IMG/VR virus record: IMGVR_UViG_3300028601_000027
Span: 1 to 64,000 of that record
Length of the DNA: 64,000 nt
Direction: 5' to 3' (one strand)
Source of the DNA: a virus
Lineage: Duplodnaviria > Caudoviricetes
Shown here: in pieces, positions 55,193 to 59,435 of the stretch
Layout: each line of letters starts with the position of its first letter
How positions within the stretch are numbered: the stretch's first letter is position 1
Notes under the pieces: model-generated
Databases searched by the model: none
Seen by the model: the letters and a program-made list of their open reading frames with translations, nothing else
Told to the model about the DNA's origin: nothing
Translations under genes and position numbers: made by a program

Positions 55193-55582
55193 TCATTTAC
55201 CATAGTCATAGGTTTTGCTAATGTTTTTAACTTGTTCCTTAGTTAGTAACTCAGCAATAATAGTAGCTTCATCTATTGACACATTATAATAATGAGAAAG
55301 CAACTTAATATCATCTAGGTTTTCGTTTTTCTTTTTAGGATACTTGAAGAACCTAAATTTCTTTTCTATGATGTTATGCCAAAATAGATAATGAGTTTTA
55401 TCATCTACGTTTAAGTTGTTAGCTACTTCTGCTAAGTATATCAAGTCTGGCGCACAAGCTAAAATCCTATTTAGCATATATTGATTATACTGACCCCTAA
55501 ATTCAGGGTCAGTATCAAATCTAGAACTATGGTCAGTTTTATCCTTGCTAATAATGTTAGCTATATCAAACACAGTCATCAT
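55193..55582 (-). CDS. gp62: Clamp loader small subunit (gp62-like)
   Basis: YNQYMLNRILA...D.I.LA...N...HY.F....I.K..RF.KY.K; start moved to ATG 55582. Confidence 0.85.
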   Translation of the reverse strand: MMTVFDIANIISKDKTDHSSRFDTDPEFRGQYNQYMLNRILACAPDLIYLAEVANNLNVDDKTHYLFWHNIIEKKFRFFKYPKKKNENLDDIKLLSHYYNVSIDEATIIAELLTKEQVKNISKTYDYGK

Positions 55583-55941
55583 AGAGTATATCCCATCATG
55601 TAATAGATAGTGTAACCGAAAATAAATATAAACCAGTATATGAGATATATGAGTTGGACTAGATAACCTGTCTTCCAACAAGCTAAGGCACTAACTATAG
55701 TTAATGTCAAGTTTCCAGCTTTAGCATATTTAATTGCACTCATTCCAGCTAACGCTTTTATCACACCAATTGATATGACAGATAATATTATAGCTATAAT
55801 AGTGACTTTGTGTATAACAGTGGCATCACCATAAATATACCAGCTAGACCAAACATCGTAAGCTGTACGCTCAAAGATACCATTAAACGTAGTGTTAAAA
55901 ATCTCATATTGTTCTACATGCAAAAAATCTAAATTCATCAT
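55579..55941 (-). CDS. Hypothetical membrane protein
   Basis: Two hydrophobic segments; inserted between gp44-C and gp62. Confidence 0.6.
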   Translation of the reverse strand: MMNLDFLHVEQYEIFNTTFNGIFERTAYDVWSSWYIYGDATVIHKVTIIAIILSVISIGVIKALAGMSAIKYAKAGNLTLTIVSALACWKTGYLVQLIYLIYWFIFIFGYTIYYMMGYTL

Positions 55942-56139
55942 AAACTCCTTTCGCTATTAACTTACCCACTAATCATTTTATCATACACCTCTTTAACAGC
56001 ATTTCTAATTTCTTCATCAGTTACTTCGCCACCACCGTTTAGTTTCTTAGGTAATTGCTTCTCAAACCAATCTTTATACTCTTGCTCATACTCTTCAATA
56101 GTTGGGATGTATTCTCGTTCTGTCATAATAATTCACTCC

Positions 56140-56865
56140 TTATTTCAGTTTCACATTATTCATTAGTTCACAACTATATGCCATTAGTGGAATTCTCTGA
56201 TCCTTAATAGTGTTAGTCTTGAAGTTGTAATCTGAAGTTAATACTATTGTAGCAGATACATCTTCATTGTCAATATATTTCGGAATAGCATCATACACTT
56301 TAGTGTAAAATACTTGTGCATCTGTAATGTTAGCACAAAACTCCCTAATCTTACCAAAGTCTCTTTCACCAATAATCTTAAAGTATGTATCTAAATCAGT
56401 ATTACCCTTATCTACTACTGACGGATCAGTAAGTCTATCACTAAATTTCTGTAGTTCGTTTAGCGTTTTCCTCATATCAGGAAAATGAGAATTGATAAAA
56501 TAGCTTAGGATTTTCTTATTGTATTCTACATCTTCCTTATCAAGTATACCTAGAACAATCTTAGCAAAATGTTTTTTCATTTCCACTAATTCTTTTTTGT
56601 TATAAGTAAACTCAAACGTCTGTAGTCGTGATTTTAGTGGTTCGATAATCCTATGAATGTTATTAGTTAGGAATATGAATGTTACATTTTTGGAATATTC
56701 TTCAACAAAAGACTTGAGTGAGTCCATTGCGTGAGGACTCATCCTATCACAATTATGAGTTAAAATACCATTTTTAGTTAGAAAGTTGTGATTATTAGTA
56801 ACAGTCAAATTCCTAACATTCTTAGTGCCAACACTACGAATGTGTTTTATTTTCACTCGTTTCAT
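56140..56865 (-). CDS. gp44: Split C-intein (38 aa) plus clamp loader gp44 C-terminal part
   Basis: MKRVKIKHIRSVG..NVRNLTV..NHNF..NGILTHN|CDRMS...LKSFVEE...SRL...FPDMRKTLNELQ. Confidence 0.92.
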   Translation of the reverse strand: MKRVKIKHIRSVGTKNVRNLTVTNNHNFLTKNGILTHNCDRMSPHAMDSLKSFVEEYSKNVTFIFLTNNIHRIIEPLKSRLQTFEFTYNKKELVEMKKHFAKIVLGILDKEDVEYNKKILSYFINSHFPDMRKTLNELQKFSDRLTDPSVVDKGNTDLDTYFKIIGERDFGKIREFCANITDAQVFYTKVYDAIPKYIDNEDVSATIVLTSDYNFKTNTIKDQRIPLMAYSCELMNNVKLK

Positions 56866-58078
56866 TTTTACTATTCTCCTTCATAAAATTAGCCACACTG
56901 TTCACCAGTTTAGGACAAGCATTAACTAGTTCATTGTTAACATAAAAATCCAAATCGTCAAGAAAATAATCCTCAGTTACAACTTCAAACCTATAATCGT
57001 TTTCTCTACACCAATCAACCAAGCTACTTGTTTTATCCTTTACGTTTTGGTTATCAAGGTTTGATTTGGGTTTCACTTCATACACGACATTGTTTAAGTT
57101 ATCTACAAAATCTACCAGATATACTCTTCTTTTCTCTAACTGTGAATCATAATAAGGAATTCTAAGACATTCATATTCTAGTTCTTGATTTTTTATCCAG
57201 AATAAGGCTTCCCATGTAGACCTAAACTTATACTCTGTTCCATCAACCGTAACTTTTGTTCTAGAGTTTGCCCATGAATTAGTCACACACGGAGTAAATT
57301 CGTTGTTCATTATCTTTCTTTTCATCGTTTCACTTTGTTTCTTATTTGATTCTTCAGAAAAATAACACTCTGAATGAGTAGACTTGTGTTCATAATAATG
57401 TTCGTGACAACAAAACCTTTTTTCTGTTCCATTTATTTCTAGATTGAATTTAATCTTAAATGGTTTATCACATAACTTACAACGAATTAAATAATCGGGT
57501 AAATGTTTTTCAAAGTATTCCCACTCGTCAAATCCACATTTACGTAAATGGTTTTTAAGTGCGTTACCTTTACCACCATTTATGTAAATCGTCTTATTAG
57601 TTTCAGGACAAACAAACACTTTAGAATCTGGTTTAGCTATCCCTTCACTTTTAGACTTATGTTCTAAATATTCATTATACTCTTCTATATTGTTGTATTT
57701 TTTATGTCTTCCATTACAACTAGCGGAACAAAACCTAGCATTATCTCTTTGTTTTGGTTTGAAGGGTTTACCGCAAAAAACACAATCTCTGTATTCAAAC
57801 CTATCACTCACCTTTACGTAGTTTTTATACATTTCTGTGCTTCTTTTTGTAGCCGCATCAGAATAGTTTTTGTTTACACATTCAGAAGAATCACAATAAG
57901 GTTTGTATCCTTTGCTTATAGACAAAAATCTAGTAGGTTTGCCACAAAATTTACAAACACCTTTCCCATGTTCTAATTCATACACATGTTCTGTAGAACA
58001 CTTATGAATCCTCAATATGTGGTTTACCAGTCCTCTATTGTTATTGAATTTCTTTTTACACAAAAAACAAGTTACCAA
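56834..58078 (-). CDS. Free-standing endonuclease (TnsA-N-like PD-(D/E)XK) with Zn-finger repeats
   Basis: FRSTWEA...YE..RIPY...YLVDF...YEVKP; multiple CxxC repeats. Confidence 0.8.
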   Translation of the reverse strand: MVTCFLCKKKFNNNRGLVNHILRIHKCSTEHVYELEHGKGVCKFCGKPTRFLSISKGYKPYCDSSECVNKNYSDAATKRSTEMYKNYVKVSDRFEYRDCVFCGKPFKPKQRDNARFCSASCNGRHKKYNNIEEYNEYLEHKSKSEGIAKPDSKVFVCPETNKTIYINGGKGNALKNHLRKCGFDEWEYFEKHLPDYLIRCKLCDKPFKIKFNLEINGTEKRFCCHEHYYEHKSTHSECYFSEESNKKQSETMKRKIMNNEFTPCVTNSWANSRTKVTVDGTEYKFRSTWEALFWIKNQELEYECLRIPYYDSQLEKRRVYLVDFVDNLNNVVYEVKPKSNLDNQNVKDKTSSLVDWCRENDYRFEVVTEDYFLDDLDFYVNNELVNACPKLVNSVANFMKENSKNETSENKTHS

Positions 58079-58771
58079 TTAAACCTCCTTAATGTTATTT
58101 TCCTCAGAAGGTTTACCCGATTCCAATCTATTTTCTTCAAGTGTAACTATCTCATCTCCTTCTTGTAAATCCTTCAGTTTGACTTCTATTATTTCTCCGT
58201 TTCTGTCAACAAAAAACGGGTGATCCATGTTAGCTTTTATGGTTCTGCCATCTTCCAATTCTACCTCAAAAACTTCATCTTGTTTTTCTGAAATGATCTC
58301 TGCTGTATCATTTTCTAATTGATTAGTATCCAAATTATAAGACAACACATCGTATTGCTTGCCTAATTCAAAATCTTTCAGTTTAGTGTATGTTGGGTTA
58401 TCTATAGTGCCTGTCGCAATTATTTCATTTTCTTCTAAACACTCATCCAACAAAACCATCTTCTTACCACCATCAAAACTAACAGTAGTAACAAATTGAG
58501 TTATCTTACCCCTAAGCACATCAATACTAGTCTCAATAGAACCATTAATGTATAGAGTATCACATCCTAATGTGTCTGCTAAGATAGTAGCAATAGTAGT
58601 TTTACCAATTCCCTGTTGTCCATAGAACAACATGTTAGGGATTTTGCCAGAAGACAACATTTTATTAAAGTTATCTTGAACGGTTTTAGGTAGAACTACA
58701 TCGTTGATACTAGTAGGTCTATATTTTAAAGCCCATACATAATCATCATAGAACTTTTTGTTTAAACTCAT
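58079..58771 (-). CDS. gp44: Clamp loader gp44 N-terminal part plus split N-intein (120 aa)
   Basis: WALKYRP...GQQGIGKTT...LLDE|CLEENE...HPFFV..L..GDEIV. Confidence 0.92.
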   Translation of the reverse strand: MSLNKKFYDDYVWALKYRPTSINDVVLPKTVQDNFNKMLSSGKIPNMLFYGQQGIGKTTIATILADTLGCDTLYINGSIETSIDVLRGKITQFVTTVSFDGGKKMVLLDECLEENEIIATGTIDNPTYTKLKDFELGKQYDVLSYNLDTNQLENDTAEIISEKQDEVFEVELEDGRTIKANMDHPFFVDRNGEIIEVKLKDLQEGDEIVTLEENRLESGKPSEENNIKEV

Positions 58772-58781
58772 GATTCACCTC

Positions 58782-59435
58782 TTATAGAGATTTGTTTAGT
58801 AGGATATAACAAATATCGCCCTTAACAAACTTTACATACTTAGGAAACACAAATACATCATAGTCACCCCTAATGAAATTAAATAGTGAAGTGTCTAGAT
58901 TTACGTCACAGCTACCGTTTCCTTCAATCTCTACTCGATACTGATTAGCCGCTGAATTATCTTCATCAAATAATGAAATCTCAGACTTATCTTCATCTAC
59001 ACCAATGTTAAGTGTTTTGAGTGACATTACCTTACTAGCCTTAAGGATACCATTCATTTGTTCTTCAGGTAATTCAAAACTAGCTAGATAGTCACCATTA
59101 GCCATATACTTTTCGTACTCATTACACTTGTTGTAAATGTGGTCTGGATTACAGAAACGATAGTTGACCTTAGTGTTACCTTGATTAATAATTACTTCAT
59201 CTGAGGTAAAAGTAAAGTTTAGTTCCTTGTTAGTATCAAACATCTTGATTACCTGACAAAACTCAGTCAAATCAAAAATAGAAAAGTTAGGGAACTTCTC
59301 TTCAATTTTAGCTAGACCGATTAGGTTCTTAGCTTCACTAATGTTTTTCAGATAGCCCTCTTCATTGATACAGATCGACTTGTTGATAAGACTAAAATTT
59401 TCTAGGATTGCTAGGGTGCGTTGGGAAATTTCCAT
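58782..59435 (-). CDS. gp45: Sliding clamp (gp45-like)
   Basis: MEISQRTLAILENFSLINKSI...FSIFDL.EF; position upstream of gp44. Confidence 0.88.
   Translation of the reverse strand: MEISQRTLAILENFSLINKSICINEEGYLKNISEAKNLIGLAKIEEKFPNFSIFDLTEFCQVIKMFDTNKELNFTFTSDEVIINQGNTKVNYRFCNPDHIYNKCNEYEKYMANGDYLASFELPEEQMNGILKASKVMSLKTLNIGVDEDKSEISLFDEDNSAANQYRVEIEGNGSCDVNLDTSLFNFIRGDYDVFVFPKYVKFVKGDICYILLNKSL

Follow-up and report, generated by a model that had tools for sequence, protein, structure and literature searches.

Within the 64,000-nucleotide window analysed here (the whole stretch of DNA, positions 1 to 64,000 of the IMG/VR virus record IMGVR_UViG_3300028601_000027), the gene encoding the clamp-loader subunit gp44 is found in two pieces, with a nuclease gene lying between them. 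The record that contains the window comprises 88,897 bp at a completeness of ~50% and belongs to a T4-like, uncultured phage of low GC content (~32%), whose origin in landfill metagenomes is indicated by public sequencing runs. The listing of open reading frames (ORFs) and the sequence itself reveal three consecutive minus-strand ORFs between the gp45 and gp62-like genes, as follows (IntN and IntC designate the N- and C-terminal intein halves; a slash within a junction motif marks an intein boundary):

58771..58079, minus strand: N ORF, 230 aa, consisting of gp44-N, IntN and a tail
58078..56834, minus strand: nuclease ORF, a free-standing nuclease gene of 414 aa with a TTG start, assigned by PF08722
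56865..56140, minus strand: IntC and gp44-C ORF, 241 aa, beginning MKRVKIKHIRSVGTKNVRNLTVTNNHNFLTKNGILTHN/CDRMSPHAMDSLKSFVEE

It is highly probable that this locus represents a fractured gene, in which a class-1 intein directly follows the Walker B Asp-Glu of gp44 and is itself split (~101/38 aa) by the free-standing nuclease gene. The original prediction, made from the letters alone, had proposed a naturally split intein in a fractured gene, and this is the reading best supported by the evidence described below.

The host protein is encoded by two exteins:

58442..58771, minus strand: gp44 clamp-loader N-extein, 110 aa (phrog_168; Pfam AAA at residues 47-110)
56140..56751, minus strand: gp44 C-extein, 203 aa and stop (phrog_168; Pfam DNA_pol3_delta2)

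The N-extein contains the Walker A motif as GQQGIGKTT and the Walker B motif VLLDE at its very end, and its length of 110 aa, its termination at LLDE and the following Cys1 codon at 58441-58439 are all as originally predicted. The C-extein opens with the +1 nucleophile Cys (CDRMSPHAMDSL...) and holds sensor 1, the lid and the collar, with Pfam scores of 30.7 bits for DNA_pol3_delta2 and 26.3 bits for Gp44_lid, the latter just below its cut-off of 27. The clamp-loader profile PHROG 168 matches the N ORF over profile positions 7-109 of 314 (E-value (E) 2e-35) and the ORF of IntC and gp44-C over positions 108-312 of 314 (E 3.2e-37). Since these two stretches of the profile adjoin, the exteins constitute one complete gp44 broken right after VLLDE, and the foreseen splice product LLDE-CDRMS corresponds to exteins that are consecutive in the profile. 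The traits of a T4-type gp44 are hence present, namely the AAA+ Walker A and B motifs, phrog_168 on both halves and gp45 and gp62 as neighbours, and no second phrog_168 match was found across 88.9 kb of the record.

Between the exteins and the nuclease gene lie the following intein-derived parts:

58139..58441, minus strand: N-intein core, 101 aa (C111 to L211), by Pfam Intein_splicing and PDB intein matches
58079..58138, minus strand: 19-aa tail (EENRLESGKPSEENNIKEV) with the TAA stop (58081-58079), delimited by the ends of relatives and the sequence
56752..56865, minus strand: C-intein, 38 aa (MKRVKIKHIRSVGTKNVRNLTVTNNHNFLTKNGILTHN), by alignment with Npu DnaE IntC and Pfam Intein_splicing

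Cys111, encoded by a TGT codon directly after LLDE, is position 1 of the intein, and the sequence continues as CLEENEIIATG..., with CLEENE forming block A and ANMDHPF forming block B. Pfam Intein_splicing matches the N ORF above its cut-off at residues 130-213 (E 9.8e-13), and among PDB sequences the IntN core is matched by the Pab PolC intein (8.5e-8) and PI-PkoII (3.9e-5), and also by the CDC21, TFIIB and DnaE inteins. In an alignment of 33 related N-halves (A1), C111, L112 and H184, the block B His that the window retains, are invariant. On the C-terminal side, block F reads NLTVTNNHNF and block G reads GILTHN, and the end of the intein, ...NLTVTNNHNFLTKNGILTHN/C, has the penultimate His, the terminal Asn and the +1 Cys all in place, which bears out the predicted basic 38-aa C-intein ending in HN/C and resuming as CDRMS. 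Residues 4-38 of this ORF align with the last 35 positions of the Intein_splicing profile (121-155 of 155) at E 0.0021, which does not reach the cut-off. IntC can also be aligned over its full length with the IntC part of Npu DnaE (2keq residues 104-139; E 0.002), which places the split at the canonical position. The terminal Asn is invariant in 18 related C-halves (A3), most of which also have the penultimate His and the +1 Cys. The two halves are oppositely charged, with a net charge of -17 for the 101-aa IntN core, -20 for the full 120-aa IntN and +8 for IntC. Thus, the acidic N-intein of 120 aa that had been proposed stands with respect to its charge and its length up to the stop, whereas the intein core accounts for only 101 aa and the remaining 19 aa constitute a read-through tail.

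Taken together, several hallmarks of a class-1 intein are found at this locus: Cys1, blocks F and G with HN and a +1 Cys, and an exact in-frame interruption of the host, across whose extein junction the intein-less allele P0116 aligns without gaps. So is the gene structure of a naturally split intein, as the halves are separate ORFs with their own translation starts and the layout recurs in independent contigs. Removal of the interruption at the RNA level, which had been named in advance as an outcome that would speak against protein splicing, would call for a group I or group II intron bearing the nuclease ORF. Phage homing endonucleases are often found in group I introns, but an Rfam scan of 55900-59000 at E<=1 yielded only a chance-level S15 match and no intron family. 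On either side, the interruption is bounded by intein blocks (A/B and F/G) that share the reading frame of the exteins; an intron is accordingly exceedingly improbable.

Each of the three ORFs has its own Shine-Dalgarno sequence. The Shine-Dalgarno sequence AGAGGTGA precedes the ATG of gp44-N at 58771, that of the nuclease (AAGGAGG, 58090-58084) lies within the codons of the IntN tail, 5 nt before the TTG, and that of the third ORF is situated as follows:

56876..56881, minus strand: Shine-Dalgarno AAGGAG of the IntC ORF, within the 3' end of the nuclease ORF and separated by 10 nt from the IntC ATG at 56865

The nuclease TTG adjoins the TAA of the N ORF directly and in the same frame, and the IntC ORF overlaps the nuclease ORF by 32 nt in a different frame. 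In nearly all relatives (A1) the tail is missing, and their N-inteins terminate at a stop codon after ...DEIVTI or ...DEIVTL, with 17-66 nt of spacer behind it; the tail in the window therefore corresponds to the usual spacer, here read through. As the N ORF and the nuclease ORF share a frame with a single TAA between them, and as a related metagenomic protein (P0132) fuses a helicase N part, IntN and nuclease in one ORF of 713 aa, recoding could be envisaged, whereby read-through of the TAA and a frameshift into the IntC ORF would generate one cis-splicing intein with an embedded nuclease. This is highly improbable, because two recoding events would be required, the IntC ORF lies in another frame with its own Shine-Dalgarno sequence and ATG, and a strong Shine-Dalgarno sequence is positioned 5 nt before the nuclease TTG. 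Furthermore, the frame relations among the three ORFs are not constant across loci, and stops occur in the spacer of most relatives.

The gene between the halves had been read as a TnsA-like PD-(D/E)XK endonuclease of 414 aa, and this assignment is upheld by Pfam Tn7_TnsA-like_N (PF08722; 30.8 bits against a cut-off of 26.5, residues 303-369) and by structural comparison, with phrog_15427, 'endonuclease', matching at E 7.6e-24. Zinc-binding motifs are strung along its first 235 residues (C2H2 at 4-25; CxxC pairs at 42, 99 and 200), a region that resembles multi-zinc-finger DNA binders in a fold search, and its C-terminal part (~residues 249-392) is the TnsA-like PD-(D/E)xK domain with the following core:

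57071..57211, minus strand: nuclease catalytic core, residues E290, D323, E334 and K336

The codons concerned are at 57211-57209 for E290 (STWEA), 57112-57110 for D323 (LVDFVD) and 57079-57071 for E334 and K336 (YEVKP). A total of 45 homologues were found, and an alignment of 53 sequences (A2) exhibits the core as S-x-W-(E/D), (I/V)-D-F and E-(I/V)-K-P, in which the D and E are invariant and the K nearly so (D322, E333 and K335 in the numbering of A2 are D323, E334 and K336 of the full ORF). An AF2 model has a predicted local distance difference test score (pLDDT) of 83.8, rising to ~97 in the nuclease domain, and its comparison by VIA-align gives TnsA (1t0f_A) as the best match (Z 9.6 over 140 residues, root mean square deviation 3.5), with lower scores for Vsr (Z 7.5) and for I-Bth0305I, a homing endonuclease (Z 7.0 over 81 residues). 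Foldseek recovers TnsA at E ~1e-2 only, and the TnsA likeness therefore rests on VIA-align and Pfam; a phmmer search of PDB matched nothing, a profile search returned only T7 endonuclease I at a non-significant E of 0.24, and the nuclease has no GIY-YIG or Vsr match in Pfam. No catalytic His is conserved in the 53 sequences, which sets the nuclease outside the Vsr-like family of Dassa et al. The database gene call (P0122, 332 aa) uses an internal ATG and omits 82 N-terminal residues (57833-58078) that hold conserved zinc-finger motifs, and hence starts too late; the TTG at 58078 is the likelier start, since relatives share the N-terminal C2H2-like motif. Most likely, this protein is a homing endonuclease.

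Close relatives of the phage provide this locus in several allelic states. In run X2, from a different landfill study, 57191-58900 is covered with zero differences from the window, and in run X6, from wastewater, 57480-58857 is covered at ~97% identity and encodes a 230-aa N-half with the same tail (P0001), so that the junction between the N ORF and the nuclease is bridged by independent contigs from two other studies. In run X4, also from wastewater, one contig of 6,474 nt spans both ends of the interrupted locus. Since the junctions are reproduced in contigs of independent studies, the locus is not an assembly artefact. The X4 contig, ~97% identical, at the same time carries a frame-breaking deletion of 473 nt (56890-57362), which removes nuclease residues ~239-397 and with them the whole PD-(D/E)xK domain, and leaves IntN and IntC in place with 4 and 3 amino-acid changes, respectively. 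An empty allele is represented by P0116 (314 aa), an uninterrupted gp44 that differs from the predicted spliced product at 8 positions (L107I, L108F, C111F, M114I, P116L, H117N, V126I and I136V) and is identical at the other 305 residues; all the differences fall within residues 107-136, around the insertion site. The empty site is also seen as DNA in run X5 (biogas fermenter), where a contig departs from the window at 56730, within the C-extein, and reads, as its reverse complement, TTT GAT GAA TTT GAC CGT ATA AGT TTA AAT, encoding FDEFDRISLN; apart from these 30 nt of DNA, the flanks of the empty allele are known only at the protein level. The same run also contains fragments of the nuclease gene. 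P0003 is another protein of the intein-less allele. When metagenome contigs were scanned with P0116, only a 36%-identical relative was obtained. Nucleotide differences from close relatives also cluster at 56674-56719.

The co-existence of occupied, empty and nuclease-decayed alleles in near-identical phages is what a homing cycle predicts. In such a cycle the nuclease, with its zinc-finger array and TnsA-like PD-(D/E)xK domain, would cut intein-less gp44 alleles of co-infecting relatives, and repair of the break would copy IntN, nuclease and IntC along with some flanking extein sequence. The clustering of substitutions at the site fits either such co-conversion of the flanks or immunity of the target site. 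Indirect support for homing also comes from the occurrence of this nuclease in several fractured genes. As for the products of the locus, the three ORFs within the gp45-gp44-gp62 block would each be translated from their own Shine-Dalgarno sequence, and gp44-N and gp44-C would be brought together by the association of their acidic IntN and basic IntC, which would fold into a HINT domain. Trans-splicing would then proceed through an N-S acyl shift at Cys111, trans-thioesterification to Cys+1, cyclisation of the terminal Asn and an S-N shift, with the predicted product being a gp44 of 313 aa (...MVLLDE-CDRMSPH...) that contains the junction peptide MVLLDECDRMSPHAMDSLK.

Several points weigh against this interpretation. 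The Thr of the block B TxxH motif is replaced by Asn in the window (ANMDH), with T and N alternating within the family, and the 19-aa tail of IntN at the split site is unusual. The clustered substitutions could reflect selection for the splicing context instead of co-conversion, and none of the listed public RNA runs contains the stretch. Finally, as the record is only ~50% complete, a second gp44 may be located elsewhere, and the phage may not rely on this copy; that an essential ATPase depends on trans-splicing, as originally proposed, is thus an inference.

The substituted block B residue would also suit a situation in which no protein splicing takes place and the gp44 halves are functional as a non-covalent assembly, kept together by the intein halves or by other contacts. 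Precedent comes from NrdA of phage Aeh1, which is fragmented by a homing endonuclease gene and reported to be functional in pieces without splicing (PMC3045599). Such an arrangement is nevertheless unlikely here, since all nucleophiles, like the HN motif, are retained here and throughout the family, which is not expected if binding alone mattered, and since at the position of the break, right behind the catalytic Glu of Walker B, an insert of 139 aa left unligated would occupy the ATPase site; moreover, cis members of the same intein family must splice to provide a normal gp44. The incomplete record and the decay of the middle gene in the X4 relative could alternatively suggest a decaying pseudogene, in which the insertion has abolished gp44 and another gene or the host takes over clamp loading. 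However, decay is confined to the nuclease, and the extein and intein halves have few, conservative amino-acid changes against a nucleotide divergence of ~3%, which renders a pseudogene very unlikely; the persistence of the split layout in many divergent phages and the single phrog_168 match in 88.9 kb point the same way. Thus, trans-splicing of a fractured gp44 remains the preferred interpretation.

The immediate neighbours of the locus are the other components of the clamp and clamp-loader block:

58782..59435, minus strand: gp45 sliding clamp gene, immediately upstream (phrog_223, E 5.3e-42)
55193..55681, minus strand: gp62-like clamp-loader small subunit, downstream (phrog_225, E 7.3e-24)

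A scan for transcription signals in this region detected 17 sigma-70-like promoters against 16.9 expected, which is the level of shuffled sequence, and no terminators. The T4 late-promoter motif TATAAATA is missing from the region and under-represented across the window. A megablast search of the region against INPHARED phages gave zero matches.

The search of metagenomes for relatives that the original prediction had called for revealed that such loci are not rare. In metagenomes, ~50 proteins of 196-222 aa correspond to gp44-N followed by IntN, nearly all with the junction DE/CLEENE, and ~20 IMG/VR loci harbour the same intein at the same gp44 site. An identical three-gene layout is present in LR756500.1, a 462-kb uncultured phage; this unannotated record was the only match of a tblastn search for the intein part, which returned no cultured phage. 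The IMG/VR loci with the intein at gp44 DE/C fall into the following forms:

Cis mini-intein in a single ORF of 441-474 aa: L006, L012, L015, L018, L019 and L031
Split intein with homologous nuclease: L007, L010, L013, L017, L021, L024 and L025, and L026 (nuclease frameshifted)
Split intein with zinc-finger remnant only: L014 and L023
Split intein with no middle gene: L016

Several of these loci show a decayed middle gene, the zinc-finger-only remnants measuring 167 aa (L014:5612-6115) and 63 aa (L023:5601-5792), and a frameshift dividing the nuclease into two ORFs in L026:5642-7244. At L008:5584-6462, and likewise at L009 and L011, the split halves flank an ORF of 292 aa without Pfam or PHROG match, which replaces the TnsA-like nuclease. 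Variation also extends to the position of the intein: a second insertion point five residues downstream, DEADYLN/CLEENE, is used in P0017, P0024, P0028, P0030 and P0046, the junction of P0045 is DEF/CLEENE, and at L030:4348-6340 gp44 appears to be in three pieces, with an extra intein at the P-loop (GLGK/CLHEDEE) besides the one at Walker B.

The same intein and nuclease are also encountered in other ATPase genes. A CobS-like AAA+ gene (phrog_249, AAA_5 and CbbQ_C) is fractured by them after its Walker B motif (LLLDE/C), in phages whose gp44 is uninterrupted:

CobS-like gene, split: L027:4689-7817, L028, L029, L032 and L034
CobS-like gene, cis: L033 and L035

At L080:4191-7442, a DinG/XPD-like helicase is fractured by a split intein at VVDE/C, with a nuclease of the same family (281 aa) between the halves; the N part of this helicase seems to carry a further intein (...SNGISNHN/S). 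The single-ORF helicase fusion P0132 mentioned above represents the state that would be equivalent to the window if its TAA were lost. In a tree of 26 inteins (142 columns), cis and split-with-nuclease forms are supported sisters at least three times, and gp44 and CobS inteins are mixed. As this tree is built from short sequences, unrooted and partly unresolved with many open forks, a repeated change of state is shown and its direction is not. We lean, if somewhat guardedly, towards the view that the zinc-finger and TnsA-like nuclease represents an undescribed homing-endonuclease family, specialised in inteins that directly follow the 'DE' of Walker B in AAA+ and superfamily 2 (SF2) ATPases (gp44, CobS-like, DinG-like helicase), and that it has repeatedly converted cis mini-inteins to split ones.

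The layout is that of the known fractured genes, to which gp44 as a host and a TnsA-like nuclease appear to be new. Fractured genes were reported by Dassa et al. 2009 for gp41, IMPDH, DnaE, NrdA, NrdJ, ligase, terminase and one unknown protein, with GIY-YIG or Vsr-like nucleases, a non-coding spacer of 27-51 nt, IntN of 88-105 aa and IntC of 33-54 aa (PMC2677866). Like gp41-1, NrdJ-1, NrdA-2 and IMPDH-1 of that set, the window has N-extein with IntN, free-standing endonuclease and IntC with C-extein on one strand, in a host gene of replication or nucleotide metabolism, with canonical sizes of IntN and IntC and an endonuclease that brings its own translation signals; an endonuclease-free locus is also known on both sides, as gp41-7 in that set and L016 in the gp44 family. 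Unlike those examples, the host is gp44, which is not among the eight host types, the nuclease is of TnsA-like type, combining a zinc-finger array with a canonical D...ExK core, and the spacer is not non-coding but translated as the 19-aa IntN tail, with the nuclease TTG right after the stop. According to the original prediction, a split intein is not known from a phage clamp loader, and a literature search likewise found no description of gp44 as a split-intein host or of a TnsA-like nuclease in a fractured-gene layout.

As regards the insertion point, the cis-inteins of cyanobacterial DnaX (PolIII gamma/tau) likewise directly follow the Walker B motif (Novikova et al. 2016, PMC4760082). These inteins, such as the Spl DnaX mini-intein (PDB 7cfv), share with the gp44 intein the class-1 type and an equivalent insertion point in a clamp-loader AAA+ protein, but are contiguous and reside in bacterial genes. 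A special relatedness to 7cfv was not detected, IntC matching it at E 0.017 and IntN having no 7cfv match at E<=10. The Npu and Ssp DnaE split inteins have the same split position (IntC ~36-38 aa) and the same polarity of acidic IntN and basic IntC, but their halves are at distant loci with no nuclease between them, and host protein and insertion site are different. Tn7 TnsA (PDB 1t0f, 1f1z) is the best structural match to the nuclease domain and has the same PD-(D/E)xK core; in contrast to TnsA, the window nuclease has no transposon context or TnsB/TnsC partners, carries a zinc-finger array N-terminally and is ~13% identical. The I-Bth0305I and Vsr-like (EDxHD) homing endonucleases (PMC3239194) also have a PD-(D/E)xK fold and are free-standing or intron-borne in phages; unlike them, the family of the window nuclease has no invariant catalytic His and no Pfam Vsr match, and is better matched structurally by TnsA.

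The particular contribution of the window is the allele series. Near-identical intein-less and nuclease-deleted alleles, together with cis, split and nuclease-free relatives, constitute built-in natural controls, and this series of natural alleles and forms therefore makes the homing cycle and the proposed route from cis to split directly testable on natural sequences. The TnsA-like PD-(D/E)xK protein with its zinc-finger array joins the candidate homing-endonuclease families. Natural split inteins of fractured phage genes, such as gp41-1, NrdJ-1 and IMPDH-1, are among the fastest protein-ligation tools, and the pool of split inteins is enlarged here by a new canonically split Cys1/Cys+1 pair with dozens of graded relatives. 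If the proposed nuclease family and its role in splitting inteins hold true, the family would include all the stages in the gene-breaking model put forward by Dassa et al., from cis-inteins through split inteins with a nuclease and those with a decayed nuclease to split inteins without one, and would offer a readily accessible supply of natural split inteins that are related and possibly orthogonal.

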